Shown piece by piece: positions 21,048 to 63,862 of a DNA stretch of 64,000 nucleotides; the stretch's first letter is position 1; the number at the start of each line of letters is the position of its first letter. The stretch is from a bacterium (GTDB lineage: Bacteria > Patescibacteriota > Minisyncoccia > Phycocordibacterales > JAUSHB01), in contig JAUSHB010000010.1 of assembly GCA_030648955.1 (NCBI GenBank), forward strand, positions 13,556 to 77,555, written 5' to 3'. A program made the position numbers and the translations under genes. The notes below the pieces were generated by a model. The model was given only the letters and a program-made list of their open reading frames with translations. It did not search any database and was not told where the DNA came from.

Positions 21048-24000
21048 CTAATACCCGACCAGTAACTGTCCTTTGTCTGTCATCACCGTAACCACCGCAA
21101 TTCCCGGCTTTGATATTTTTATTTTTTTACTTTTTCCCTCTTCAACCTCATCCACAATCTTGGTTTCGTTGATTGCTTGTTTATATTTCGTTTCAATTTT
21201 GCGCATATCCTTAAGATGAATTTCTTGAGAGAGTGACTTTAGTATATCATTTTTGAATTTCCATTCATATTCGAGTGTTGTTTTTGGTGTTGCTGTGGCA
21301 ATGCCATTGTAGATGATCGTATTAAAAACAACCTTAATTTCCGTGGGTTCTTCTTCGTACTCAAGGAAAGGGATGTTGGTTGTGTTGCCTGCTTCGTCGG
21401 TAATCGTGGTGCTGGTTGCGGTGGTGTTTACCGTAGTGGATGAGAGATTATCGATGCCCGTGATAAAAAATTTGTTGGCAGCGGGGTCAAAAGTAAAACG
21501 TGCTTCTGGTGGGGTTGCATCATAGATAGTGGTACCGCCAAGAGTTGGTTTAAGTGTGGAATCGATTGTGTTATCGTTGTTGAAATCAATCGCGAGTGTA
21601 GTCGTAGTTGAAAGTACTCCTGTCCATGTAAGAGTCACTTGTGTGGTTGTAGCAGTGGGAATAGCTTCGTAGGTGGTGGAAGCCATGACAATGTCGCCAC
21701 GAAGCTCTTCAAGGTCAAGAGTGAACGAACCTGAAGCGTAGGCATCAAGTTTTACGGTATGCAAAGTATCGGCAGAAACAATGATAATTTTGGTATCACC
21801 AAGAGTGTAGTAAGTACTACCCTTGATGCCTTCTTCAATCAATCCCGTGGTCGTCGAGATACCAGTATGGTTGCCTGCTTGGTCATAGATGTTGAGGTTG
21901 AGGGGTGAATGAAGTTGATACTTGATATATGGTTTTGTGGAGACAAGTAATGAAGAATCATTGGTAATATATTGTTCAGGGGTCGAACTGCTTATGACAA
22001 TCGAATGGATGAAGGAGCGAAGGGGATCAACTTCAAGAATATTTTTGTGCTCACGGTCAATTGTTGATGTTAAATTGTTATACTTTCCCAAATCCACCCA
22101 CCACTTTTGCGTCATTGAAGAAGTCGGCATGAGATGCGCGCTTTCTTCCACCACTGTTTTGTCGCCGTTTAACGTTACCTTATCTTGAATTTTAATGACA
22201 TCAACATATCTCTCACAAATAATTGGTTGTGGTGCGCCGATTGTTTGCGGTGTCGATGGGGGATCTCTGGGGATACATACTTTATTCTTTTCGTAACGAA
22301 TCACCGCGGGAGTATATATCCCCCACCCTGCGATTTCATAAACCATAGTCGATGTGGCAGGAGTCCATTGGTCGAGCGTCGCGTGGATTGTTTCGGCGTT
22401 TGAAAGCAGGGTTGAATTTCCAATCGCAGGAGAAGAAAGATCGTCATAGGCAGGTACAGCCCGTCCGTCACCGCCCGTGAGATAATCTGCAAGCTCATCA
22501 TAGGTGTCGATGGTATCGCCATAACGTGCTGAGATTACGGGACTCACTGCGTTTCCTCCAAACTCAATGAGCGGCGTTGAGGAGCCGATGTATGCACGCG
22601 ATGGAAGGAGATTGTATCCCGTTGGCATATTGTGCAAAAGGTCACGAACGCGCTCCGCATCCATGAGAAAACCTAATGGACCAAGACTTCCGCCATGAAG
22701 AAGCTGGCCGACAGTGTCAGGCGTTCCTGCTTGGGGAACGGCGACAAAAATAACATTGTCGATTCTGTCGTAGAGGGGGTCGTTGGCCTCCTTCAGTTTT
22801 TGAATGAGCGCCTTGGTGACGAGTCCACCGTTTGAATGCGCAACGATGGTGACCTTTTGGGTCTTCGACGAATCCGCGAGTATTTTCAACTGCTTGTATA
22901 GGTAACTATTTGTGAACCCTTGCGGGGTACTGTATGAAATCCCGTCAGTTGATGTTGCGCCATTCTGAAGAATATCCTCGAGTGAGAGCCGCCAATCGTA
23001 TGCGATCATAGAGTAATCGTTGATGATGTGATCGGCTTCTTTCCACTTCTTGAGGTCGTTTATAAACGATTGGTAAATATTGGAAGCATATACTTCATCA
23101 ATAACACCAGCGGTGCCTTCTTTTGTGTATAACGAGTTAATGCTCTTCCCTGCTCCATTGAGTACGAGGCGTTGGTGATTGCAGTCCAGTATTGAAACCC
23201 AGCGTTCTTTTTCATTGTTAAATACTCCACAATCGCTGCTTTTTTCAAACAGTCTTGATCCCATCATCCCCGGCAAAAACAGAACGTTGGAATAACAGTC
23301 GGCGGTGCAGGGAGGGGGTATATTGTTCCACCCATCTTGTGTTGTCCACGGAAGATTATCCTGCCCGCCATAAAAAATATATGGCGAATCGCAGAAGTTG
23401 TCGTTATTTGAATCACTACAACCCTCTGCTGTCGTATCAAAGTTACTCCAGTAGTTGCCACCGATTGATGGGGTGAGATTAAAAACATTACCGTTGCCAC
23501 CATTGACACGAGCCTGCGTAAAGTTGCCGATAAGATTGTTGTTGTAAACTTGGTTGTTGTTGGAAGAGAATAGATAGATTCCGTAAACGTTATTGTTTGA
23601 TGCAGTGTTGTTTGTCAGAATGTTGTTACTGGATAAGGAAAATAAGATTCCATAAAAGTTGTTCCCTAACACAGTGTTGTTTGTCAGTGTGTTATTGTTT
23701 GAGGAACCATAGAGGAGAATTCCGGAGTTGTTGTTTGATGCGATATTGTTTGTCAGAACGTTATTGCTACTGGAAGAGTCGAGATAGATTCCAGAGTTAT
23801 TGTTTGAGGAATTTACGTTCGCAATTGTGGATGAGCTTGTTTGTATGAGAAATAAGCCGTTGTTTTTCTTCGTTATCGAACCGTCAATTGTGATATTGTT
23901 TATATTTGAACCGCCGGCGTTGCACAGTATCAATTCAGAAAAAGTTTCATTACTTAAGGTAACCGCGCTGTTGAAGTATCTGATTGGTCTCCCGCCGGAA

Positions 24001-24977
24001 CCAATAGTGTTGGTAATACTGTTGTCACAATGGCTATCTGACGATACTTGAACATGAAGGTCGTCGGAAGAGTTTTCCTGCGCAACATTGTTCATCAGAA
24101 TATTATTACTGGAAAAGTAGAGGTAGATTCCAAAACCATTTGAACTCGCGGTATTGTTGGTTAAAGTGTTGTTGTTACTAAGATATCCAAGAAAGATTCC
24201 GTAACTATTTGAGGTCGTAGTGTTGTTGGTTAAAGTGTTGTTGGATCCACGGAGTAAGATTCCATTCAAAAATTTCTTAACATTTAAATTCTTGATAGTA
24301 ACGCCAGTCCTTCCAGAAAATCCGGAAAGATAGACACCGTTTCCCGTATTGCTCCCGGTTAACATGTGGCTGTTGCCGTCAAGCGTTATGCCATTGCTGT
24401 CGATCTGAATGGTCTCGGTTAAATCCACATTCAGTGTGCAGGTTTTAATAGCGGAATCCCAGTTGCCAATCAAAGTGCAATCGCCGCCAGTGGCATCATC
24501 ACGAATGAACTTGGTGCTTTTGTGGGTTTGGATAAAGACAATGTGGGGAGTTGAAATGTCTTGCGTGTATGAATATGCGCCGTTTTCGTCAGTGGTAAAT
24601 TGAGTCAGGTTGTGATAATTGTCTTCATATTTATAGTAAGTGGTTGAGGTAGTAAAACCATAAAGGGTGATCTGGGTTGAGGTTGCAATTAAAAGAGCGG
24701 GCGACTCAATCGTCATTGTTACCATGTTGGGAACCGACTCCATTCTAAGTTTGATTACTTCTGTGCTGTCTAAACTGATATTTAAATATGCGCTGTCGGT
24801 GATAGAAAAGTTTGCGCTCGTACCTTCTACGACGCCTGATCGTGTCGATGGTTCAAACGATGGCAACTCTTGAGCTCTTGCGCGATCAGCGAATAAGAAT
24901 ACCCCTGCGACAAAAACCGCCGCAAGTACAAGATGGGGCGCAAAGAAAAACTGTGATTTTAGGTTCGATATATTCAT
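21048..24977 (-). CDS. giant secreted multi-domain protein: signal peptide, parallel beta-helix repeats, lipase-like alpha/beta hydrolase, C-terminal beta-rich domains
   Basis: Signal peptide MNISNLKSQFFFAPHLVLAAVFVAGVFLFADRARA. Repeated N-N-x-[TL]-x-N-N-T-A-S-N-N / GIYL units indicate a right-handed beta-helix. The motif VLFLPGMMGSRL ... VTIVAHSNGGLV is a G-H-S-x-G nucleophile elbow of the PGAP1/LCAT-like lipase type. The C-terminal 400 aa are Thr-rich and Ig-like. Confidence 0.8.
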   Translation of the reverse strand: MNISNLKSQFFFAPHLVLAAVFVAGVFLFADRARAQELPSFEPSTRSGVVEGTSANFSITDSAYLNISLDSTEVIKLRMESVPNMVTMTIESPALLIATSTQITLYGFTTSTTYYKYEDNYHNLTQFTTDENGAYSYTQDISTPHIVFIQTHKSTKFIRDDATGGDCTLIGNWDSAIKTCTLNVDLTETIQIDSNGITLDGNSHMLTGSNTGNGVYLSGFSGRTGVTIKNLNVKKFLNGILLRGSNNTLTNNTTTSNSYGIFLGYLSNNNTLTNNTASSNGFGIYLYFSSNNILMNNVAQENSSDDLHVQVSSDSHCDNSITNTIGSGGRPIRYFNSAVTLSNETFSELILCNAGGSNINNITIDGSITKKNNGLFLIQTSSSTIANVNSSNNNSGIYLDSSSSNNVLTNNIASNNNSGILLYGSSNNNTLTNNTVLGNNFYGILFSLSSNNILTNNTASNNNVYGIYLFSSNNNQVYNNNLIGNFTQARVNGGNGNVFNLTPSIGGNYWSNFDTTAEGCSDSNNDNFCDSPYIFYGGQDNLPWTTQDGWNNIPPPCTADCYSNVLFLPGMMGSRLFEKSSDCGVFNNEKERWVSILDCNHQRLVLNGAGKSINSLYTKEGTAGVIDEVYASNIYQSFINDLKKWKEADHIINDYSMIAYDWRLSLEDILQNGATSTDGISYSTPQGFTNSYLYKQLKILADSSKTQKVTIVAHSNGGLVTKALIQKLKEANDPLYDRIDNVIFVAVPQAGTPDTVGQLLHGGSLGPLGFLMDAERVRDLLHNMPTGYNLLPSRAYIGSSTPLIEFGGNAVSPVISARYGDTIDTYDELADYLTGGDGRAVPAYDDLSSPAIGNSTLLSNAETIHATLDQWTPATSTMVYEIAGWGIYTPAVIRYEKNKVCIPRDPPSTPQTIGAPQPIICERYVDVIKIQDKVTLNGDKTVVEESAHLMPTSSMTQKWWVDLGKYNNLTSTIDREHKNILEVDPLRSFIHSIVISSSTPEQYITNDSSLLVSTKPYIKYQLHSPLNLNIYDQAGNHTGISTTTGLIEEGIKGSTYYTLGDTKIIIVSADTLHTVKLDAYASGSFTLDLEELRGDIVMASTTYEAIPTATTTQVTLTWTGVLSTTTTLAIDFNNDNTIDSTLKPTLGGTTIYDATPPEARFTFDPAANKFFITGIDNLSSTTVNTTATSTTITDEAGNTTNIPFLEYEEEPTEIKVVFNTIIYNGIATATPKTTLEYEWKFKNDILKSLSQEIHLKDMRKIETKYKQAINETKIVDEVEEGKSKKIKISKPGIAVVTVMTDKGQLLVGY

Positions 24978-26428: not shown

Positions 26429-26450
26429 GGTTAAACCAATATTAAAGTTA

Positions 26451-26469
26451 AAAAATCAAAGTTTAAAAT
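26451..26469. repeat. AT-rich element core AAAAATCAAAGTTTAAAAT (family copy i)
   Basis: The same 19-mer, or its reverse complement, recurs at 37703-37721, 57190-57208 and, as a variant, at 60924-60956. Confidence 0.6.
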
Positions 26470-26550
26470 TTTTGTATTCGCCTGTCTGCGTGCATCGCAC
26501 AGGCAGGCCAGCGACGAATACCATGATTTTTCATTTTGATATTTGCATTT

Positions 26551-27513
26551 TTATTTTTCCCTAAGAACTAGGCCAAGATTCCCAAGCGCCCGCCTGATTT
26601 CCTGAATTCCCTTTTCGCCAAGTCCCTCGAGCTCAAGAAGATCTTCTTCACTTTTCTTGGAAAGTCCCCCTACGGTTCTGATGTTTGCGCTTGCAAGAGC
26701 ATTCGCAGTACGCGTCGAGAGATCGAGACTTTCGACTTTCATTTTTGAAACTTCTTCTTCGTCGGTGGTTTTGATTGCGTTTCCTTCGCTAATATCAACT
26801 CCACTTGAAACAAACTCTTCTTCCTTAAATCCAACAATCGACTTAAGTTGATTGATCATTATCTCGATTGATTTCTCGAGTGCTTCACGTGGAGTAAGTG
26901 TTCCATCTGTCTCAATGGAAATTTTGAGCCTGTTGTGGTCTGTCCTATCACCTACGCGCATGTTTTCTACTTCGTAATTCACGCGACGAATTGGAGTAAA
27001 TATAGCATCTACCGCAATAGTTCCAATGTCCACTTTTTCTTTTTGATGTACATCTTTTGCAATATACCCGAGACCTTTCTCGACTCTCAATTCTATATCA
27101 AGCGTTGTTCCCTTGTCAGTAATAGTAGCGATCGGAGCATCTTTTGATAATACTTCAACTTGACCGGGAACTTTGATGTCTGCCGCCGAAACATTTTTTA
27201 CACCCTTCACCGTCAATGTTACGGTTTGCGGTTCATCAGTCAACATCTTGAACCGTACTTTTTTTAAATTAAGCAATATGGTGATAACATCTTCTTTCAC
27301 GCCTTGAATGGTTGAAAACTCATGTGACACGCCACTGATCTTTACAGACGTAATCGCCGCTCCCGGAAGAGACGAGAGAATGATCCTTCGTAATGAATTA
27401 CCAAGTGTGTGACCATATCCCGGGTACAAACCGTCAATCTCGTAAACACCGGAGATTGCATCTTCGGAGATTACACGAGGTTTTGAGGGAAGAATGACAT
27501 TGTATTCAGGCAT
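26551..27513 (-). CDS. rpoA: DNA-directed RNA polymerase alpha subunit
   Basis: N-terminal dimerisation domain and a C-terminal domain (...EDLLELEGLGEKGIQEIRRAL). Confidence 0.9.
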   Translation of the reverse strand: MPEYNVILPSKPRVISEDAISGVYEIDGLYPGYGHTLGNSLRRIILSSLPGAAITSVKISGVSHEFSTIQGVKEDVITILLNLKKVRFKMLTDEPQTVTLTVKGVKNVSAADIKVPGQVEVLSKDAPIATITDKGTTLDIELRVEKGLGYIAKDVHQKEKVDIGTIAVDAIFTPIRRVNYEVENMRVGDRTDHNRLKISIETDGTLTPREALEKSIEIMINQLKSIVGFKEEEFVSSGVDISEGNAIKTTDEEEVSKMKVESLDLSTRTANALASANIRTVGGLSKKSEEDLLELEGLGEKGIQEIRRALGNLGLVLREK

Positions 27514-37604: not shown

Positions 37605-37740
37605 GATAATTCAAAATGTAAATATCAAAATGTAAAATTACAGTTTAAAATTTAAAGACAAGGAAGGATTGTGCTGTTTTTCTTTTTGAATTTTCATTTG
37701 TGATTTTAAACTTTGATTTTTTAATTTGTTGTAACAGAAT
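37605..37740. repeat. AT-rich palindromic element (family copy ii) upstream of the MgtC gene
   Basis: CAAAATGTAAAT direct repeats on one arm, and the reverse complement of AAAAAATCAAAGTTTAAAATC at 37703-37721 on the other arm. Confidence 0.5.
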
Positions 37741-55240: not shown

Positions 55241-55825
55241 TTATATCCCTTTGCGTCCAAAATCGCGAATTTTTTCAATAACAGCTTTTTTCTTTGCATC
55301 GCTCATGCGCGGCAACGGACCAATCGTCGTAAGCCACACAGGGCGAACACCGCAGAACATTAGAATTGCGCGGCGAAGTTCATTGGTGAAATCACCAAAG
55401 AGCATGCGCGTATGAAACGGGTTTGTGTCCATTGTGATGACCACGCGACCACTTTTACCGCGCAAGAGACCATCCCATCCAAAATCAACCTTATGAAACT
55501 TAAAAGAAAATCCGGGAATAAATGCCCGATCAAAAAACCCCTTGAGAAGCGCGGGCATTGTTCCCCACCAGTTAGGGTAGATAACGACAATATGATCAGC
55601 CCATTTAATATCCTCTTGCGCTTTCAAGAGGTCGGGTTCGAGCGCCTGAATCACCTTGTATCCCTTGTGTAAAATCGGATCAAACACAAGATCACCGATA
55701 TTAGTACGCCTGACTTCATGCCCTGCACTTTTAGCACCCTCTTCATAGGCGGATGCAAGGGCTCCCGACATGGTCTCTTTGTCAGGATGACCAACAAGAA
55801 GATAGATTTTTTTTGCCATAATCAA
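55241..55825 (-). CDS. NAD(P)H dehydrogenase (quinone), flavodoxin-like fold (MdaB/YwrO-like)
   Basis: KIYLLVGHPDKETMSGALASAY ... VIYPNWWGTMPALLKGFFDR. Confidence 0.7.
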   Translation of the reverse strand: MIMAKKIYLLVGHPDKETMSGALASAYEEGAKSAGHEVRRTNIGDLVFDPILHKGYKVIQALEPDLLKAQEDIKWADHIVVIYPNWWGTMPALLKGFFDRAFIPGFSFKFHKVDFGWDGLLRGKSGRVVITMDTNPFHTRMLFGDFTNELRRAILMFCGVRPVWLTTIGPLPRMSDAKKKAVIEKIRDFGRKGI

Positions 55826-55895: not shown

Positions 55896-56219
55896 TTAGT
55901 GTTTGAAAAATTCATACGTAAAAAATAGGAAAAGCGTGAGCGCGCCGAAAATTAAAGTCCACGCAAGAGCGCGCATGAAGCGGGTGGTACTATCGCTTGT
56001 ATCTATTTTTTTTATAAAAAAATATCCAGAAGTGACCGCAACAAAAAAAATAGTCGCCCATATTCCTTTCCCCACCCAATGGTGGTAATGCGCGTCCTTG
56101 AGAAGTTTTTTAAGCGGTGCATATAGATCGGCGACAATAGTAAGCACGACAATGAAAATTACCGCGGAGATCGCTCCAATAATACATGCGTTTACCAGCT
56201 TTGTTTTTGAAATTTCCAT
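55896..56219 (-). CDS. small membrane protein (hypothetical)
   Basis: 107 aa with 3 TM segments. Confidence 0.4.
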   Translation of the reverse strand: MEISKTKLVNACIIGAISAVIFIVVLTIVADLYAPLKKLLKDAHYHHWVGKGIWATIFFVAVTSGYFFIKKIDTSDSTTRFMRALAWTLIFGALTLFLFFTYEFFKH

Positions 56220-56225
56220 ATATTT

Positions 56226-56684
56226 TTAGCGCACAGCGCCCGATATGATAATGCCGGCTAGTGCGATTAAAAGTCCTAATACAGTTATCGATCCAGCAAG
56301 AAATACGGCCCCTTTTCGTAACCCCTCATTCTGTGATAAATCTTGATTCATTTTCCATATAACGATCAGCAAAGCAAGGGCTGCAAAAGGAAGGAAGAGA
56401 AAAATATGTTCCTTTGCTTCCGTAAAAATTTTGTGCGCCCACGGATACGCTCCGGCAACAATTTTTGGCTTTTGAATATCTCCATAATACACAACGTAAT
56501 AGTAACCCCCTGAAAACCATGAGAAAAGATACGAGAAAAAAGAGATAAGCGAGGATTTCTTGAGGAAGGATACGGATGGAGATTTTTTGATAAGTTCCAA
56601 CCATACCGCATAGGACGCGGCAACAGCTATGATTCCAAGAATCACATGGGCGATCAAGGAAAATGTTAGTAGTGGGGTAATCAT
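56226..56684 (-). CDS. membrane protein (hypothetical)
   Basis: 152 aa with 4 TM segments. Confidence 0.4.
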   Translation of the reverse strand: MITPLLTFSLIAHVILGIIAVAASYAVWLELIKKSPSVSFLKKSSLISFFSYLFSWFSGGYYYVVYYGDIQKPKIVAGAYPWAHKIFTEAKEHIFLFLPFAALALLIVIWKMNQDLSQNEGLRKGAVFLAGSITVLGLLIALAGIIISGAVR

Positions 56685-57184
56685 GCTTTTGCGCTAGAGG
56701 ATTTTCTAATAAGATCCAGAATGATACTTCCCGCAATAACTGCGATCGTATAGTATAGCATCACCTCAAAATATGAATATGACTTCGCATTGGTAAGAAA
56801 AACTCCAACAATCAGAGCTCCATACCATGATACAAAAGAAAATGCACTTCCCCAATAGAGAGAAATTTTATGCGCCTGAAGGAGGAGCGCATTAGCGGCA
56901 ATAACAATGACAATAGTGAGTTTTGCCCAGAGAAGTGGATTATAAAGTTTGAATGCCTGCCCGTTCAGCTGATAGTAAAGAAGAAACCCGAAACCAGAAA
57001 GAAGGGCGAGGATGAGACCCACTCGCACTACTGTGAATGTTGTTTTAAGAAAATCACCTTCTACAGGGTCTACATGACCATCTCTAAGTGATTTGGTAAG
57101 AAAGATTTCAATAAACGTTGCCCCGCCTACACCGAGAACGGTTCCAATGAGATGAACGATGACGAGAAATATATAAATGTCCAT
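56681..57184 (-). CDS. membrane protein (hypothetical)
   Basis: 167 aa with 5 TM segments; its start overlaps the stop of the next gene by 4 nt. Confidence 0.45.
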   Translation of the reverse strand: MDIYIFLVIVHLIGTVLGVGGATFIEIFLTKSLRDGHVDPVEGDFLKTTFTVVRVGLILALLSGFGFLLYYQLNGQAFKLYNPLLWAKLTIVIVIAANALLLQAHKISLYWGSAFSFVSWYGALIVGVFLTNAKSYSYFEVMLYYTIAVIAGSIILDLIRKSSSAKA

Positions 57185-57316
57185 GTTATAAAATCAAAGT
57201 TTAAAAATCAAAGTGCAAAATGGCATTGTAAAATTTAAAATTTTAGAGACCTTTCCCTTTTATTTTGCATTTTTAATTGTCATTTTTAATTTTGATATTT
57301 ACATTTTACATTTTTC
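57185..57316. repeat. AT-rich palindromic element (family copy iii) between copZ and the membrane-protein operon
   Basis: Arm 1 AAAATCAAAGTTTAAAAATCAAAGTGCAAAATGGCATTGTAAAATTTAAAATTTT. Arm 2 TTTTGCATTTTTAATTGTCATTTTTAATTTTGATATTTACATTTTACATTTTT is roughly its reverse complement. Confidence 0.5.
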
Positions 57317-57523
57317 TTACGTCGCCGTATATCCAAGTTCCGCAATCGACTTAATAATAGCATCTTTAGTCACTTTTGCCGAGTCAAACTCTACCTCTCC
57401 TTTCTTTTTATCGTAATCGACAAAGATAGATTTAACGCCATCCATCCCGGATACAAGCATTTGTATGCCAGTCGCGCATGCCCCGCAGTGCATTCCTCCT
57501 ATATCAAGTGTTATTTTTTCCAT
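57317..57523 (-). CDS. copZ: copper chaperone CopZ (HMA domain)
   Basis: MEKITLDIGGMHCGACATGIQ contains the G-M-x-C-x-x-C motif. Confidence 0.8.
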   Translation of the reverse strand: MEKITLDIGGMHCGACATGIQMLVSGMDGVKSIFVDYDKKKGEVEFDSAKVTKDAIIKSIAELGYTAT

Positions 57524-57728
57524 AGTGTTTTTTTAATCAAAAGGGTTGTAATCACATAATCTTACATCTCCCTGCCAACAATTACCAAAATACTCGAGAG
57601 AATTAATTCTTTTACCTCCAAATAAACTGTCATGTTGCCACACCGGCAATAAACTAAGGACGAGGATACTTATTACAATTACGACACCGGACTTCATGCC
57701 CAACACTATATCACTTCTCTATACTACG

Positions 57729-57752
57729 CTCAATCGGCGGGACATAACGCTT
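57729..57752. repeat. 24-bp direct repeat CTCAATCGGCGGGACATAACGCTT (copy 1; copy 2 at 58139..58162 inside the copA 3' end)
   Basis: Exact 24/24 match. The pair brackets a 386-bp low-GC segment carrying ORF 57761..58084. Confidence 0.85.
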
Positions 57753-57760
57753 TTATATTT

Positions 57761-58084
57761 TTAAAAAATGATTATATGACCAAGCCAAATAAGAATAAAA
57801 AAGATATTAATAGAAAACGCAATAAAGCTAGCGATGACAAGCAAGGCATTAGGAGCATGTTCTCCTTTTTCTTGCTTTTCTTTTAAGGACTGCTGGCTAA
57901 ACATTGAAAGAATACCCACCGAAAAAGTAACAAAAATGATTACAACACTAATAGAAATTATTCCTACCCCGGAACATATATGATATTTGTAATTAATCAC
58001 CTCACAAAATGCCACCATAAAACCGAGAATAATCGATGTAATTACCACAAGGTGGTTTATATCTATATTTATTTTTTTCATCAT
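57761..58084 (-). CDS. small hydrophobic protein encoded on the low-GC insert
   Basis: 107 aa with 3 TM segments. Very AT-rich compared with the flanking copA. Confidence 0.4.
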   Translation of the reverse strand: MMKKINIDINHLVVITSIILGFMVAFCEVINYKYHICSGVGIISISVVIIFVTFSVGILSMFSQQSLKEKQEKGEHAPNALLVIASFIAFSINIFFILIWLGHIIIF

Positions 58085-58122
58085 AAAGTTTAATCGCGTT
58101 AGATGTTATAGAATTTGAATAA

Positions 58123-60468
58123 TTACTTAACGCCCTTCTCAATCGGCGGGACATAACGCTTGAGGAGGAGGGAGTTGAGAACGACTGATACTGATGAGAA
58201 TGCCATGGCGAATCCCGCGATTTCTGGGCGGAGCGTTGCTTGCGAGAGGCTCAAGAAATATGTTCCGAATCTTCCCAAGTTTTCACTCATCACAATCACC
58301 CAAGCCGCGGGGACGCCACCCACGAACGCAGTCTTTGTTATCAGGAGATGAATTCCTCCGGCGACTGGAATAGCAATAACGTTATAAAAGAACGCCCAGA
58401 AAAGATTCTGCCAAACTTTCTTAATTGTTTTTCCGGAAAGTTGGATCGCGGTCACCACGTCGCGAAGATCGTCTTTCACGAGCACGATTTCGCCCGTTTC
58501 AATAGCGACATCAGTTCCCGAACCGATTGCAATACCGACATCCGCTTGCGCAAGCGCAGGCGAGTCATTAATACCGTCTCCCACCATCGCGACAGTTTTT
58601 CCTTCTGCCTGAAGCTGTTTAACCATTTTTGCTTTATCTTGCGGCAACACTTCCGCCATCACCCGATCGATGCCGACTTCACGTCCGATCGCTTCTGCTG
58701 TTTTTTTATTATCGCCAGTAATCATCACGATCTCTTTGCCCATTTTTTTCAATTCCGCGATAGCTTCTTTTGCAAATGGCTTCAATGTGTCCGCCATTGC
58801 GATCATCGCGGTAGGAATTCCATCGACTGCCATAAACACAACTGTTTTTGCTTCGCCCTGCAATGTATCAACCTTATCTTGGTATAAAGCAATATCAATA
58901 CCGAGGTTTTTCATATACGCAGGATTTCCAATTTCAACTTTCTTATCGCTTCCCTTATCAAAAACCATCCCATACACGCCGTATCCAGAAATAGCTTTAA
59001 AATCTTTCGGCGATACGAGTTCCCCTTGCGCTTTTCCTTTCTCAATGACTGCGCGGGCAAGAGGATGTTCGGATCCTTGTTCTACGGACGCCGCGAGGAA
59101 TACTGCTTCCCCCTCATCAACTTGGGCTAATGGAAGCATGAGAAAATTTGTTACCACTGGCTTTCCTATTGTAAGTGTTCCCGTTTTATCAAACACAATC
59201 GCCGTAACCTTGTATGCTTTTTCAAGCGCTTCGCCGCCCTTCAAAATAATTCCATATTTTGCCGCACGTCCGATTCCCACCACGAGCGCTGTCGGTGTCG
59301 CAAGACCCATGGCGCACGGGCACGAGATCACGAGCACTGCAATCGTCGTCATGAGCGCCGCCCTAAACGGCAGCTCCGCAATGAAATACCAGCCGACAAA
59401 AACCAATATCGAAAGAACCACCACGGCAGGCACGAAGTATTCGCTGATTTTATCCACAAGATCCTGAATGGGGGCGCGAGATGCCTGTGCTTCTTCAACC
59501 ATTCTGACAATTTGAGATAAAAGCGTGTTTTTCCCGACTTTGGTCGCTTTGAACCTAATAAGTCCTTCTTGGTTTATGGTGGCGCCGATTACTTCTTCTC
59601 CGACACCCTTGCCAACCGGAAATGATTCTCCTGTTACTACCTTTTCATCAATATGAGTCCTCCCTTCAACAATAATGCCGTCCACGGGGATTTTCTCTCC
59701 CGGACGCACCACAACAATATCTCCCTCTTTAATTTCATTGATGGGAACCGTCATTTCCTTTCCATCGCGCACCACATGAGCTTCTTTTGCTTCAAGCTTA
59801 AGAAGTTCTTTGATAGCGTTTGACGCTCTCCCGCGCGCGAGCACTTCAATGTATCTGCCGAGAAGAATAAACACGAGAAGCGCAGCAGAGCTTTCCCAAA
59901 ATGGATGGCTTATATTAAACCAAAGGAATCCGATCATACTATAAAAATATGCGGCGGAAGTTCCGAGGACTACGAGCACATCCATATTTGCCGATCCGAC
60001 ACGAATCGCCGTGAATGCATTCCTATAAAATGACCAGCAAATAACAAATTGAATGGGCGTTGAAAGTATCCAGTAGAAGTAATTGAGATCGATCCCCCAG
60101 AGCTGATGCACGTGCTGGAGATTGAACATATGAACCGCCATGTAATACACAACAATGGGAGCGGCCAAAATAAATGCCGCGATCACGCGGTTTCGCGCCT
60201 GTTTGATCTGTTTTGCTTCTTTTTGTTCTTCTTCTTCGATCGTTGCGCTCTCTTCATCGGGACGAATCACATCATATCCGAGCTTATTGACAAACGCGTC
60301 AATTGTTTCGAGAGAAATTTTTGATTCATCAAACTCAATCGCTGTTTTTGCCGAGCCATAATTTGTTTTTACGCTCGTGACACCCGGCTGCTTGCCAACC
60401 AACTTGTCGATGAGAATCGAACACGATGCGCAATGCATTCCTTTTACTTTGAGTACTAGTTTTGCCAT
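58123..60468 (-). CDS. copA: copper-translocating P1B-type ATPase
   Basis: N-terminal HMA (GMHCASCS), a CPC motif in the TM region (SCPCAMGLATP), DKTGTLT and GDGINDSPAL. Confidence 0.9.
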   Translation of the reverse strand: MAKLVLKVKGMHCASCSILIDKLVGKQPGVTSVKTNYGSAKTAIEFDESKISLETIDAFVNKLGYDVIRPDEESATIEEEEQKEAKQIKQARNRVIAAFILAAPIVVYYMAVHMFNLQHVHQLWGIDLNYFYWILSTPIQFVICWSFYRNAFTAIRVGSANMDVLVVLGTSAAYFYSMIGFLWFNISHPFWESSAALLVFILLGRYIEVLARGRASNAIKELLKLEAKEAHVVRDGKEMTVPINEIKEGDIVVVRPGEKIPVDGIIVEGRTHIDEKVVTGESFPVGKGVGEEVIGATINQEGLIRFKATKVGKNTLLSQIVRMVEEAQASRAPIQDLVDKISEYFVPAVVVLSILVFVGWYFIAELPFRAALMTTIAVLVISCPCAMGLATPTALVVGIGRAAKYGIILKGGEALEKAYKVTAIVFDKTGTLTIGKPVVTNFLMLPLAQVDEGEAVFLAASVEQGSEHPLARAVIEKGKAQGELVSPKDFKAISGYGVYGMVFDKGSDKKVEIGNPAYMKNLGIDIALYQDKVDTLQGEAKTVVFMAVDGIPTAMIAMADTLKPFAKEAIAELKKMGKEIVMITGDNKKTAEAIGREVGIDRVMAEVLPQDKAKMVKQLQAEGKTVAMVGDGINDSPALAQADVGIAIGSGTDVAIETGEIVLVKDDLRDVVTAIQLSGKTIKKVWQNLFWAFFYNVIAIPVAGGIHLLITKTAFVGGVPAAWVIVMSENLGRFGTYFLSLSQATLRPEIAGFAMAFSSVSVVLNSLLLKRYVPPIEKGVK

Positions 60469-60486
60469 ACATTATTTATTATTATA

Positions 60487-60918
60487 TTACCGTGTTTCCA
60501 TAAGAGATTTTATATGAAGCTTGCCCACCTGATCTATGTGGCCACGGGCATGCCCATTTACCTCCCCATCACCACATGGGACAGAGCAATAAAATGGAAA
60601 TTCGCCCGGTTGTGTCGCCACAAATTGAATGTTGATGGTTGAAAGTGCCGGAATTCTTTCTGAAACGCCAAACGCGTCGATAGCAATGCCGTGGTCATAA
60701 CTATCTTCGTTTACTATCTTCAACATAACTTTGTCGCCCTGATTGACGGTTATATCGTCGGGTTCAAATTTCCATTCGTCTTTCTTTGCGGTCAGAGTAA
60801 ATTCGCGGACAATCCCCGTATCAAGGGGTTTCCGTTCGTCTCCTGAAAAAAAACGAAATGCGACACCAGCGCCAATGAGCACGACGAGCACTATTCCTAA
60901 TGTAATGTATTTATTCAT
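60487..60918 (-). CDS. cupredoxin-like small secreted protein
   Basis: N-terminal TM/signal segment; C-terminal ...HGIAIDAFGV ... FYCSVPCGDGEVNGHARGH ... M has Cys/His spacing resembling CuA / cupredoxin copper sites. Confidence 0.5.
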   Translation of the reverse strand: MNKYITLGIVLVVLIGAGVAFRFFSGDERKPLDTGIVREFTLTAKKDEWKFEPDDITVNQGDKVMLKIVNEDSYDHGIAIDAFGVSERIPALSTINIQFVATQPGEFPFYCSVPCGDGEVNGHARGHIDQVGKLHIKSLMETR

Positions 60919-61103
60919 GGCTACAAAATCAAATTTTAAAAATCAAAAATTAAAGTCACAATGTAAAGATAAAAATTAAAACATTAACATGCGCCTGTTA
61001 AGTCTTATAATCCTCTTACGTTTATAATTCCGATTTTACCATTCATTACTTTTAAATTTTCAATTGTCATTTTGCATTTTGACATTTACATTTTTATTTT
61101 TTG
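60919..61103. repeat. AT-rich palindromic element (family copy iv)
   Basis: CAAAATCAAATTTTAAAAATCAAAAATTAAAGT ... TTTTGCATTTTGACATTTACATTTTTATTTTTTGTCATTTA. Confidence 0.5.
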
Positions 61104-63590
61104 TCATTTAACCTGCAAAAATCGATGCACCCCATAACTCAAAAGTGACATAAGAATGATCGAGCTAATAAAAAGTGTCCACCATCGTGCCTGCGGATCA
61201 ACCTTGTTTGTCGATGGCACGACTGGTTTATTGACCTCTTTTGCGACCTTCACATAAAATTCAGCGCGGATTGCTTCATCGGGCGCAAGGTTTGCATCTT
61301 TGGGTCTGAACTGCGCAAAAAGTTTATACACGCCTTCCGTGGGAAAGGTAACACTGAACGGGAGTTCCGATGATTCTAGGTGGGGTTCTTCCACTCCACC
61401 ATGCGCACGAGCTGTTTTTATAATTACTTCCGACAACTGGGATTCTTCTCCATCGATCATCCCGTGATGACCGTCTGAATCATCGTGTCCGGTATTGTCC
61501 GGAGTAATTTCACTACCCGGACTGGCTGCAGCGCCCGGATGAGTATGAACATACTCACTTAAATCATCTTTAACGAGCACAAGATGCATAGGTGCCCCGA
61601 GATAACTTTCAAGCTCCACGCCATTGCCATAGAGATTTTTTACCGCAAGACGAATCGTTTCTTCTCTACCCTTCACGAGCGGCGCGCCATGACTAAACGC
61701 AACTTGATAATCGCCTACCATCGTATTCGAGAGAAAATCAACAGACTGCTTTGTGGAGGATACGACACTTCCATCCTTTCCAAACACCGAAAGTTTCGTG
61801 TGACCGAATGTATAAGCAGTACCGCCCTGTTTTATATCAGACCAAATTTTATATGTTCCCCCCTCGGTGAATGTATAGAGAACCTCCCACGTTCCCGCTT
61901 TTGTTTTCTTCGGATGAAGATGGAAGAATTGCGTAAGATCGTCTCGCATACCGATGACATGAATATATTTCTCGTGCGATATTTCAAGATCGTCAACCGG
62001 CTTTCCGGACAGTTTTTCATTCACAAAAAATTGCAATTTCACCGGCACTCCCACACCCGGATTCTTTGGAGCGATACTATTAACCACAAGACCTTCGATA
62101 ATTTCTCCTTCTTCACGTAATTGCGCGCTCGCGGACATTATATGGTCGTTTCCCATCATCATATCCCCATCGGTCATCACGTGACCGCCCGCTGTTGCAT
62201 TTGAGTCTATGGAATTTCCGACATCATCGTGCCCGTGAGGCATGCTTTCATCAAGAATAACGGGAGTTTTTTGGTCGGCAGTTTGAGTATTGTCTTCTTC
62301 TCCCATTACATGCGAAGTATCATTGGCGTCGAGAACTGAGTTTCCTGTCGAATCGTGTCCGTGAGGCATATTCTCGTCAATCGTGACCCCCATATGTCCG
62401 CCTTCAAGCGCTTCGTGTTTAAGAAAATTATGCGGAAGTATGTAGATAAAAATAAGTGCCAACACTATGGTGAGGGTGGTGAAGAATTTTTCACGGGACA
62501 TTAAAAGACCGTGCTCCGCATCTTTTTCCTTGACTTGATTCGCCTCGGGAATCATACTGACACGATTCTTTTCCCTAAACCACCACCACCAAATAGGGAA
62601 TACCCACAAAAACACCAAGAACCAATTGCCGAGCCAGAGCGGGAGACCAAAAAGTCCTGTCCCCACTTCCATGCCATGGTCATGAGTTACCGCACTGCCA
62701 ATATTTTGCTTAACGATATTAAGAAGTGATTCTTCTTGGGTTAGCTTTTCAAGCCCTGTATGAATCCCGGAGTTCACCCACCAATCGTGACTGAAAAGTC
62801 CGAGAGTGAGGATAAATCCAGCGACAAAAACCATCGCCCAGCCAGTAATTCGTTCAACTTTATCCTTTCGCGCAATAATCCATGAAAGCCCGTTGACTCC
62901 CATAATACCAAGAAGTGCAAGGAAAATAAGGGGTAATACTCGCCCAATCGCATGAACAAGGAAAAGCATCCATCCGTAGAGAACGTCTCCACTTGAAGCG
63001 ATCTCAACCAAGATAAGTGGCGTTGCGGGATGTGGACATCCGATGCCGACATTACCCAAGAAAAGTCCGAGAAGAAGCGCCTTGAGATAATCTTGTTTCT
63101 TTTGAATGAACGCCGGAGCTGCGCCAGTATAGGTCGGCATTCGGAATTTCATAAGGCCGATTTCGCTCAATGCAAAGACAAGCGCGAACATTCCGGCAAT
63201 AAAGTACACCCAGTTTTTAATAGTTTCGGCGGCATCAGAGCCGAGCGCACCGATGGCAGCCTTTCCAAAAAGCGCGGCGGCAACTCCGTAAAGACTTAGG
63301 GTAATCGCTATACCAAGCCCGAATGAAAGCGCCATACCAAGACCTTTCACAATTCCACGTCCCATAGAGAGCGGCACAATGACAAACGCGAGCGGCAAGG
63401 TGCACGGCAACACAATCATGGAAAGCCCGGCCGCAAAACTGAAGATCCACCAGAATAGTCCGAGGTTATTCGGATCTCCTGCCACAACGGTTCCCTTATA
63501 CGAAAAAAGCCAAAATAGACCTAGTGCGATAACTGCGAACAATACAATAGCGAGAAAAATAACAATCTTCTTAGAAACTTTTGATTCCAT
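61104..63590 (-). CDS. DsbD/CcdA-like transmembrane thiol-disulfide transporter fused to His/Met-rich segments and two tandem beta-rich domains
   Basis: The TM domain has Cys in VLPCTLPLAFV and GCPHPATPL. The periplasmic part has two MPHGHD motifs, an M-M-M-G-N-D-H run, and two roughly 100-aa repeats each ending in ...DDL[TS][QE][FY]xHxHP. Confidence 0.6.
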   Translation of the reverse strand: MESKVSKKIVIFLAIVLFAVIALGLFWLFSYKGTVVAGDPNNLGLFWWIFSFAAGLSMIVLPCTLPLAFVIVPLSMGRGIVKGLGMALSFGLGIAITLSLYGVAAALFGKAAIGALGSDAAETIKNWVYFIAGMFALVFALSEIGLMKFRMPTYTGAAPAFIQKKQDYLKALLLGLFLGNVGIGCPHPATPLILVEIASSGDVLYGWMLFLVHAIGRVLPLIFLALLGIMGVNGLSWIIARKDKVERITGWAMVFVAGFILTLGLFSHDWWVNSGIHTGLEKLTQEESLLNIVKQNIGSAVTHDHGMEVGTGLFGLPLWLGNWFLVFLWVFPIWWWWFREKNRVSMIPEANQVKEKDAEHGLLMSREKFFTTLTIVLALIFIYILPHNFLKHEALEGGHMGVTIDENMPHGHDSTGNSVLDANDTSHVMGEEDNTQTADQKTPVILDESMPHGHDDVGNSIDSNATAGGHVMTDGDMMMGNDHIMSASAQLREEGEIIEGLVVNSIAPKNPGVGVPVKLQFFVNEKLSGKPVDDLEISHEKYIHVIGMRDDLTQFFHLHPKKTKAGTWEVLYTFTEGGTYKIWSDIKQGGTAYTFGHTKLSVFGKDGSVVSSTKQSVDFLSNTMVGDYQVAFSHGAPLVKGREETIRLAVKNLYGNGVELESYLGAPMHLVLVKDDLSEYVHTHPGAAASPGSEITPDNTGHDDSDGHHGMIDGEESQLSEVIIKTARAHGGVEEPHLESSELPFSVTFPTEGVYKLFAQFRPKDANLAPDEAIRAEFYVKVAKEVNKPVVPSTNKVDPQARWWTLFISSIILMSLLSYGVHRFLQVK

Positions 63591-63598
63591 AAAATAAA

Positions 63599-63862
63599 TT
63601 ATTTTGAAAGTTCTGTGATGTACGTAATAAATTTTTCTTTATCAAACCCTCCTGTCGCCCATAATTCCCCGTTTATGATAATCCCTGGTGAAGCAAATAT
63701 CATATATTTCTGCGCAATCTCTTGCCCTTCTGAATCCATGATACTTACATTTTTGTAAGAAACGTTAGGCCAGTCTTTCTCCACTGAATGCCAAAATTCC
63801 TCAAATGCCTTGCAGTTGTGACAACCCGGCGATGATAATTCCTCAAGAGTGATTGGTTTCAT
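63599..63862 (-). CDS. thioredoxin-fold protein (CxxC)
   Basis: SPGCHNCKAFEEFW, 87 aa. It sits upstream of the DsbD-like gene, an arrangement like ScsB/ScsC or CcdA/ResA modules. Confidence 0.7.
   Translation of the reverse strand: MKPITLEELSSPGCHNCKAFEEFWHSVEKDWPNVSYKNVSIMDSEGQEIAQKYMIFASPGIIINGELWATGGFDKEKFITYITELSK

Follow-up and report, generated by a model that had tools for sequence, protein, structure and literature searches.

The window analyzed here is a stretch of 64,000 nucleotides from a genome of the Patescibacteriota (GTDB lineage Minisyncoccia; Phycocordibacterales; JAUSHB01; assembly GCA_030648955.1, contig JAUSHB010000010.1, positions 13,556 to 77,555). On its minus strand lies a block of copper genes (57317-63862) built around a protein of 828 amino acids (aa) in which a membrane module of the DsbD/CcdA superfamily is fused to two putative copper-binding beta domains. 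In transcription order the block encodes a thioredoxin (Trx)-like protein, the 828-aa membrane protein, a cupredoxin, the ATPase CopA, two small open reading frames (ORFs) and the chaperone CopZ (Table 1). This order and strand had been proposed in a sequence-only reading of the window; every ORF is present at its coordinates, and Pfam and NCBIfam matches back each assignment.

The same reading described the block as an island. We find instead a syntenic core operon situated beside YchF and LeuRS: in the window and in relatives, the copper genes are syntenic with these two genes and with a Flavodoxin_2 gene. The genes for the Trx-like protein, the transmembrane (TM) module, the cupredoxin and CopA occur jointly in 60 of 80 Patescibacteria loci from other species, a set that includes many truncated contigs, and the gene order is thus conserved far beyond chance. 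Taken singly, the Trx-like gene is present at 70 of these loci, the cupredoxin at 72, CopA at 66 and a small CopZ/HMA protein at 56. The copper genes form a conserved operon, and they travel together across the phylum.

Table 1. Features of the copper block and its surroundings in the window, and copper-enzyme fusions of the membrane module in relatives (L numbers designate loci of relatives).
Feature	Position	Strand	Support or remarks
Trx-like protein, 87 aa (CHNC at 63812-63823)	63599-63862	minus	Pfam Thioredoxin_3 E 2e-8; NCBIfam MJ0307-type redox_disulf_1
828-aa fusion protein, 10 TM: CcdA-like module, His/Met-rich linker, two beta domains, C-terminal TM anchor	61104-63590	minus	ORF
CcdA/DsbD-type six-helix core, aa 45-274	62769-63458	minus	Pfam DsbD_TM, NCBIfam
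Extracytoplasmic His/Glu loop after TM6, aa 268-312	62655-62789	minus	columns invariant in 34 sequences
Disordered His/Met-rich linker with two MPHGHD motifs, aa 397-488	62127-62402	minus	pLDDT < 50
Beta domain 1, YtkA/CopC-like, aa 489-605	61776-62126	minus	invariant E493, H544, D551, F555, H557, H559
Beta domain 2, aa 620-785	61236-61733	minus	invariant H669, H682, H684, Q760, F761, R762, P763
Membrane-anchored cupredoxin, 143 aa	60487-60918	minus	Pfam Cupredoxin_1 E 1e-12
CopA, P1B-type Cu ATPase, 781 aa	58123-60468	minus	NCBIfam ATPase-IB1_Cu 6e-177; PRK10671 3.5e-177
Insert ORF, 107 aa, three TM	57761-58084	minus	PHROGs holin match weak, E 0.083
Insert ORF, 57 aa	57533-57706	minus	ORF
CopZ-type chaperone, 68 aa (GMHCGAC)	57317-57523	minus	Pfam HMA 2.8e-15; NCBIfam CopZ models up to 6e-16
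Three small membrane proteins (167, 152, 107 aa)	56681-57184, 56226-56684, 55896-56219	minus	syntenic after copZ in L006, L031, L064, L086
Flavodoxin_2 / NADPH-dependent FMN reductase gene	55241-55825	minus	syntenic just downstream of the copper genes in the window and in L002, L030, L040, L086
Three-domain multicopper oxidase fusion	L030-L034
Three-domain multicopper oxidase + beta2 domain	L005, L035, L039, L048, L049, L056, L057
Three-domain multicopper oxidase fusion, contig truncated	L065
Two-domain multicopper oxidase fusion	L037, L038, L047, L077, L078; split in L066
Bona fide NirK fused to CcdA-like module	L064 7114-9396		E 5e-93 to solved NirK

For the 828-aa protein, ten TM helices with both termini inside are predicted alike by hydropathy, by the positive-inside rule and by the AlphaFold model (AF2; mean pLDDT 72.7). 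Its parts follow one another as an N-terminal helix (TM0), a six-helix core, an outside loop, two helices with a basic cytoplasmic loop, the disordered linker, the two beta domains and a C-terminal anchor. The core matches Pfam DsbD_TM over aa 50-226; its 35.3 bits exceed the gathering score (27.1). Of 34 homologues, 34 match the same model (best E 3e-11). NCBIfam matches include TsoB (1.4e-12) and DsbD PRK00293 (1.1e-7, over aa 49-228). The entire protein contains only two cysteines, C63 in TM1 (LPCTLP; codon 63402-63404) and C185 in TM4 (GCPHP; codon 63036-63038). Both are invariant in 34 aligned sequences, and GCPHP is found at 85 of 85 loci. Because the DsbD_TM match passes its threshold and the Cys pair is conserved in close relatives, the DsbD/CcdA-like assignment made in the sequence-only reading holds at the level of sequence, by which the membrane module is a divergent member of the DsbD/CcdA family.

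A His after the second Cys and the outside loop after TM6 set the module apart from canonical members. This His (C-P-H, H187) is invariant, and H213 and R217 in TM5 are equally unchanged across the 34 sequences, as are H268, W270, W271, H277, E281, T284, E286, H303 and H305 in the loop after TM6. With 2 Lys/Arg and 6 Asp/Glu, this loop is placed on the outer side by the positive-inside rule; situated where the CcdA-like core opens to the outside, it may form a metal site. An hhalign comparison of TM1-3 with TM4-6 detected no internal inverted repeat (hhalign probability 0.8%). When the membrane module alone was searched with phmmer against 1.84 billion cluster representatives, it retrieved 361 proteins at E <= 1e-3. 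So few relatives among so many representatives indicate that the family is compact and well separated from ordinary CcdA.

The remainder of the protein contains the tandem motifs to which the sequence-only reading drew attention, and all four copies are present: MPHGHD at aa 408-413 (62352-62369) and aa 450-455 (62226-62243), and DDL[ST][EQ][FY]xHxHP at aa 550-560 and 675-685. The MPHGHD copies, however, lie in a disordered linker whose length and sequence differ between homologues, and they are not conserved. The pair arose by a 126-bp duplication, visible as a 126-bp direct repeat in the linker region; this duplication is a lineage-specific feature also present in close relatives. Tails of the type MPH[GST]H recur sporadically in other architectures.

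Each beta domain carries three invariant His residues, H544/H557/H559 in the first and H669/H682/H684 in the second, and in the second a disordered stretch rich in His and Asp is inserted (aa 687-737, with HDDSDGHHG). By structural comparison the beta domains come closest to the copper-resistance protein CrdA and next closest to the Cu-binding P19/Tp34 family, and their fold is modelled as a Greek-key beta sandwich like that of solved copper-binding YtkA/CopC-type immunoglobulin (Ig)-like members. Profile searches for DsbD_2/CcdA and CopC/YtkA-like domains had been suggested as checks on this ORF. The membrane half was confirmed by DsbD_TM as described above, but for Pfam YtkA (PF13115) the window protein gave a weak match (E 0.089; 13.9 bits, with a gathering score of 25.9). 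Among the homologues, 12 of 34 have YtkA matches (best E 3.2e-7). The modelled folds of the two beta domains resemble those of YtkA/CopC-type copper-binding proteins, and we regard both domains as putative copper binders.

Fusion of such domains to a DsbD-like membrane protein had seemed unusual from the window alone. It is in fact the standard form of a family with a relative in at least 256 genomes, as found in a scan of one genome per GTDB species. There are 515 scored homologues of the 828-aa protein; nearly all of the 120 matches listed are 650-880 aa long, and every named homologue among those 120 belongs to Patescibacteria, the next relatives being from Candidatus Yonathbacteria. The window itself comes from a Parcubacterium (Paceibacteria). 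The window copy is an ordinary family member, distinguished by lineage-specific features, namely the MPHGHD duplication and inserted repeats.

Variants of the architecture occur throughout the family. At ten or more loci the coding sequence is broken at the cytoplasmic loop, giving one gene for TM0-TM7 and a second for TM8, linker, beta1 and beta2. The stop and start of the two genes abut or overlap (-35 to +6 nt) in L015, L020, L061, L084, L066 and L072, and in the last two of these the second gene lacks the beta domains. A distant relative (P0161) has the reversed order, with the beta domains first. The occurrence of TM module and beta domains as fused, as split with translational-coupling junctions and as permuted forms supports a functional coupling of the parts. 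A four-TM protein of ~130 aa, without Pfam match, is encoded between the Trx-like protein and the module in L010 (7492-7881), L062 (1941-2348) and ~40 other loci, and in P0143 it is fused to the N-terminus of the module; tblastn did not find this partner gene in the window. At eight loci, forms of ~500 aa join to the module no more than a coiled coil in the cytoplasm and a short tail; five of these tails end in ...ESMPH[GT]H.

In further members the module is fused to copper enzymes (19 of 85 loci), with a multicopper oxidase at 18 of these and NirK at one. Stand-alone NirK genes are encoded within a few kb of the operon at three Parcubacterial loci (L051 4151-5278, L066 5098-6327 and L076 13298-14509). 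Since copper enzymes take the place of the beta domains or accompany them in these proteins, the membrane module is a general partner of extracytoplasmic copper sites in the phylum.

The first and third genes of the operon encode a thiol protein and a copper protein, respectively. In the Trx-like protein we found no signal peptide, anchor, TM or hydrophobic segment, and it is therefore probably cytoplasmic. The PGCxxC motif is kept in at least 90% of 66 orthologues. Judging from these features, the protein probably serves as a cytoplasmic donor and not as a periplasmic partner of the Scs type.

A single helix at the N-terminus anchors the cupredoxin. Its phmmer alignments include nitrosocyanin (2.8e-8), the CuA domain of ba3 oxidase subunit II (1.6e-7) and the CuA domain of NosZ; in the CuA alignments, the His of the CuA site corresponds to H76 and its Cys pair to C111/C115. 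The CuA-like ligand set of the window protein would comprise H76, C111-x3-C115 and H127-x2-Q130. In 71 orthologues NEDxYDHG, YCSVPC and a later His are conserved, many with H-x2-M, and the shortest of them contain CSVPCGEGHxxQ, the exact CuA spacing C-x3-C-x3-H-x2-(M/Q). Compared with the CuA motif, the window cupredoxin has 8 extra residues before the second His, and Gln replaces Met. A binuclear CuA-like site is plausible given this ligand pattern. Some pipelines name the protein "cytochrome c oxidase subunit II".

CopA has an N-terminal HMA domain with CASC (aa 13), followed by CPC (aa 383) and DKTGT (aa 427). Motifs and profile matches identify it as a P1B-1 Cu ATPase and CopZ as a small MxCxxC chaperone. 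The two genes are separated by a lineage-specific insert of ~609 bp (57527-58135), as against 30 bp in a relative with 80% identity (L086). Perfect 24-bp direct repeats (58138-58161 and 57729-57752) bracket the first part of the insert and duplicate the 3' end of copA (KRYVPPIE); the second copy is still trailed by the ancestral copA stop. The three small membrane proteins encoded after copZ contain conserved His motifs (HLIGTxLGVGGAT; PWAH..EAKEH; HHHW.GKG); for the 167-aa protein, the DUF2214 match of its orthologues (5.6e-6) stays below threshold. These proteins may belong to the copper operon as an uncharacterised membrane complex.

Palindromic AT-rich elements flanking the block had been suggested as its operators. 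The elements are real, but one of them (60919-61103) lies inside the block; the others are located after copZ (57185-57316) and at ~26447-26558 and ~37613-37720, making four copies in 64 kb. The repeat has conserved ends, GTTAcAAAATCAAAGTTTAAAAATCAAAG ... CATTTTGATATTTACATTTTTATTTTT, which are partly inverted-repeat-like, and a variable core. In L086 the corresponding junctions are 5-30 bp long, so that genes abut, and there are no AT-rich elements. With four dispersed copies in the window and none at these junctions of the relative, the elements are dispersed insertions and not conserved operators, and the repeat looks like an element of the miniature inverted-repeat transposable element (MITE) or repetitive extragenic palindromic (REP) kind. 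An inverted-repeat scan of the intergenic regions revealed no convincing operator palindrome, promoter and terminator scans stayed at chance level, and an Rfam scan of the window matched no family. The further statement that no CsoR/CopY-type regulator is visible was borne out: there is no CsoR, CopY or MerR gene in the 2.2 kb upstream of the block (recovered from an identical Logan contig), downstream, in the loci of relatives or in their compared upstream regions. A 73-aa upstream ORF common to four loci has neither Cys nor His and was rejected as a CsoR- or CopY-type regulator.

Some neighboring genes encode possible thiol or redox proteins. The Flavodoxin_2/FMN reductase could act as a redox partner in the cytoplasm. 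In three relatives a gene for a membrane-anchored DsbA-like protein with an ECPFC motif (L083 6539-7303, L027 6535-7272, L022 6542-7249) lies on the opposite strand, in divergent orientation, just ahead of the Trx-like gene; its product is a possible exported thiol-oxidoreductase partner, and none was seen in the window. Elsewhere in the window (21048-24977, minus strand) is a gene for a 1309-aa protein with NosD/right-handed beta-helix repeats and a lipase-like (LCAT/DUF7379) region, probably a large surface protein.

The 828-aa protein belongs to a known superfamily, in which its copper-dedicated architecture and context are new. Full-text literature searches on the family and its context returned no description of the family or of CcdA-copper-enzyme fusions. 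Like CcdA/DsbD-beta (PF02683), it has a DsbD_TM match, a predicted six-helix core, Cys residues in TM1 and TM4 and a CxxC Trx-type protein, probably on the cytoplasmic side. Unlike them, it carries an additional helix at the N-terminus and another two behind the core, the outer His/Glu loop, a His beside the second Cys and fused copper-binding or copper-enzyme domains; it forms an isolated clade, has no cytochrome c context and comes without an encoded exported Trx-fold acceptor. The DsbD-family proteins characterised so far all use an exported thioredoxin-fold acceptor (PMC3322552). In a view of the loci, no gene for an exported Trx-fold protein was present in the operon here or at the loci of relatives.

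The pairing of a DsbD-like protein with a thioredoxin had been compared with suppressor of copper sensitivity (Scs) modules. ScsB is a copper-linked class of DsbD, marked by a Lys at position +8 relative to the first membrane Cys (PMC3322552), and the likeness to ScsB/ScsABCD extends to a DsbD-superfamily membrane protein that is genetically tied to copper. It goes no further. ScsB has eight TMs and alpha and gamma periplasmic domains with redox Cys pairs, and it reduces ScsC/TlpA, none of which applies here: the two Cys are all that the protein has and its extracytoplasmic segments have none, Ile71 stands at +8 in place of the Lys, ScsC/TlpA-type partner genes are missing, and the Trx-like protein has no signal peptide.

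Copper chaperone systems offer parallels for the beta domains. YtkA domains act in CuA assembly and are known fused to the copper membrane protein YcnJ (PMC13344008, PMC12362106), and YtkA/CtaK of B. subtilis works with Sco in CuA assembly (PMC13344008). The window protein resembles YtkA/CtaK and the B. subtilis YcnJ (CopC-CopD-YtkA) in having a YtkA-type Ig-like domain tethered or fused to a copper membrane protein and in its genetic link to a CuA-like site, but its membrane partner is of the CcdA family rather than CopD, and it has two tandem domains with an H...HxHP three-His signature. At the level of inferred function, it also resembles Sco/TlpA with PCuAC, a disulfide reductase that holds the CuA cysteines in the reduced state and a Cu(I) chaperone, in standing beside a CuA-like cupredoxin; no such homologue is found here, the reductase would be a membrane transporter with both roles in one polypeptide, and there is no heme-copper oxidase or NosZ client. 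Reportedly, Thermus Sco and PCuAC are a case of such reductase-plus-chaperone CuA assembly. Finally, CcoGHIS (the cupric reductase CcoG, the FixH-domain protein CcoH and the Cu-ATPase CcoI) likewise clusters a membrane reductase, a protein with an extracytoplasmic Ig-like domain and a P1B copper ATPase, there for the biogenesis of a cuproenzyme. CcoG, however, is a cytoplasmic-side Fe-S protein, the client is the cbb3 oxidase, and there is no sequence relationship.

We tentatively favour, at close to but short of an even chance, the reading that the system exports copper and assembles or maintains extracytoplasmic copper proteins. CopZ would pass Cu(I) to CopA, which would pump it out. At the membrane surface, the tethered His/Met-rich linker and the two beta domains would capture copper and hand it to client sites. 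The CcdA-like module would move reducing equivalents from the cytosolic Trx-like protein across the membrane via C63 and C185, and the His/Glu loop at its outer mouth could link this reducing power with copper, with the cupredoxin Cys pair, or with both. Reduced copper and a reduced Cys pair would then permit metallation of the CuA-like site or, elsewhere, of the fused multicopper oxidase or NirK. One polypeptide would thereby unite the reductase role of Sco/TlpA with the chaperone role of PCuAC and YtkA-CtaK in CuA assembly. We infer all of these biochemical steps from genes and sequence. The scheme agrees with findings in Rhodobacter, where multicopper oxidases depend on the CopA efflux route for their maturation (PMC8456105).

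Several observations weigh against this assembly scheme. Copper binding and redox activity are predicted properties, as is a CuA site in the cupredoxin. The YtkA score of the window protein itself is below threshold, the fold was matched to no solved CcdA, and an alignment-profile search over all PDB sequences gave no relevant match to solved CcdA or DsbD. The operon encodes no extracytoplasmic Trx-fold acceptor. Both membrane cysteines are missing from four distant family members (P0189, P0196, P0226 and P0247, the last of which is fused to a multicopper oxidase), and at two such Cys-less loci, L087 (P0247, 4577-7815) and L088 (P0189, 4342-5914), the upstream gene for an 88-aa Trx-like protein keeps its CxxC, while the cupredoxin, CopA and CopZ are gone. 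A co-loss of the membrane Cys and the Trx CxxC was considered and rejected, the CxxC being intact at both of these loci, the two examined. Because Cys-less relatives keep a CxxC Trx gene, a strict relay from Trx to the membrane Cys does not hold throughout the wider family. To our knowledge, neither the T1, T2 and T3 sites of multicopper oxidases nor NirK need disulfide reduction, so the role of the module in the oxidase and NirK fusions is not explained by Cys-pair reduction alone.

The same genes can be read as a thiol-fed transmembrane electron conduit, in which electrons would pass from NAD(P)H to the Trx-like protein, the Cys pair, copper at the His/Glu loop or at the His triads of the beta domains, the CuA-like cupredoxin and a terminal copper enzyme (NirK, a multicopper oxidase or another). 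The result would be an external electron sink, or a route for O2 or nitrite detoxification, without quinones or cytochromes. Electron transfer is a known function of CuA centres, and CuA-like ligands are present in the cupredoxin; the electron route to Parcubacterial NirK is itself described as unresolved, leading "to a cupredoxin by an unknown means" (PMC5581439). Covalent fusion to redox enzymes that need or move electrons at 19 of 85 loci, NirK near the operon at three loci (L051, L066 and L076) and the syntenic Flavodoxin_2/FMN-reductase gene downstream would also suit such a conduit, although the window version has no oxidase or reductase domain and the oxidase-fused P0247 has no Cys pair. 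We nevertheless consider it unlikely, with a modest chance of being right: reduction of a metal centre is known for no DsbD-family protein, two-electron thiol chemistry feeding one-electron copper centres across a membrane would be unprecedented, and the presence of CopA and CopZ in nearly every locus points to copper handling rather than respiration. A smaller chance attaches to the module being a conduit for copper ions, an importer or insertase with a Cys/His path (C63, C185-P-H187, H213) to or from the cytosolic CxxC protein, for which the His-rich linker and the beta domains would capture copper by analogy with CopC-CopD-YtkA (YcnJ). CPx motifs are metal-binding motifs of P1B ATPases, and the invariant TM4 C-P-H resembles them. 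H213 and R217 in TM5 and the outer His/Glu cluster are likewise invariant; the ~500-aa members reduce to the module and a short C-terminal tail, with ...ESMPH[GT]H in 5 of 8; the Trx-like gene keeps its CxxC, which can bind Cu(I), where the membrane Cys are lost; and in YcnJ a copper importer is already known to carry a fused YtkA domain (PMC13344008). The module, however, matches DsbD_TM and no transporter family, more distant relatives that retain the Cys carry Asn or Phe in place of H187, no substitute ligands occur in the Cys-less relatives, and an importer beside a dedicated exporter in one operon would be counter-intuitive.

Less probable again is an Scs-like repair of copper stress, in which electrons would serve to reduce or isomerise non-native envelope disulfides induced by copper. 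The genetic linkage of a DsbD-family protein to copper genes, as for the copper-linked ScsB (PMC3322552), speaks for it, but the operon encodes no exported ScsC, ScsD or TlpA-like Trx-fold protein, its sole Trx being the one without a signal peptide, the alpha and gamma Cys-pair domains and the ScsB Lys are lacking as described above, and the fusion partners of the module are copper-binding or copper-enzyme domains and not oxidoreductases. There is very little chance, in our view, that the protein is the cytochrome c biogenesis CcdA of its database name. Source annotations do read "cytochrome c biogenesis protein CcdA", a name derived from the Pfam DsbD_TM match. No ResA, CcmG, ResB, ResC, Ccs or cytochrome genes are found at the loci, the operon partners are all copper proteins, the 361 phmmer relatives among 1.84 billion representatives do not reach canonical CcdA, and lineages of the Candidate Phyla Radiation (CPR) are generally inferred to lack electron transport chains (PMC5581439). 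As a statement of function, the name is almost certainly a misnomer.

This matters for annotation, in that thousands of database entries carry the name "cytochrome c biogenesis protein CcdA", or "cytochrome c oxidase subunit II" for the cupredoxin, in organisms that have neither cytochrome c biogenesis nor cytochrome c oxidase, and such names can mislead metabolic reconstructions. Current understanding divides the DsbD/CcdA superfamily into three classes, DsbD, CcdA and ScsB, each of which supplies exported proteins with a thioredoxin fold. The presumed roles of these transporters would be broader with a fourth class that is dedicated to copper, has a His/Glu site on its outer side and lacks a Trx-fold acceptor. 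For the NirK, multicopper oxidases and cupredoxins of CPR bacteria, whose electron supply and assembly are unexplained, the conserved operon and its fusions provide a concrete, testable candidate. If the electron-conduit alternative were true, the module would provide the first demonstrated case in the DsbD family of a metal centre being reduced instead of a protein disulfide, and it would supply the missing route by which Parcubacteria without quinones or cytochromes deliver electrons to nitrite or oxygen. The operon may thus explain how Parcubacteria build or power their outer copper enzymes.

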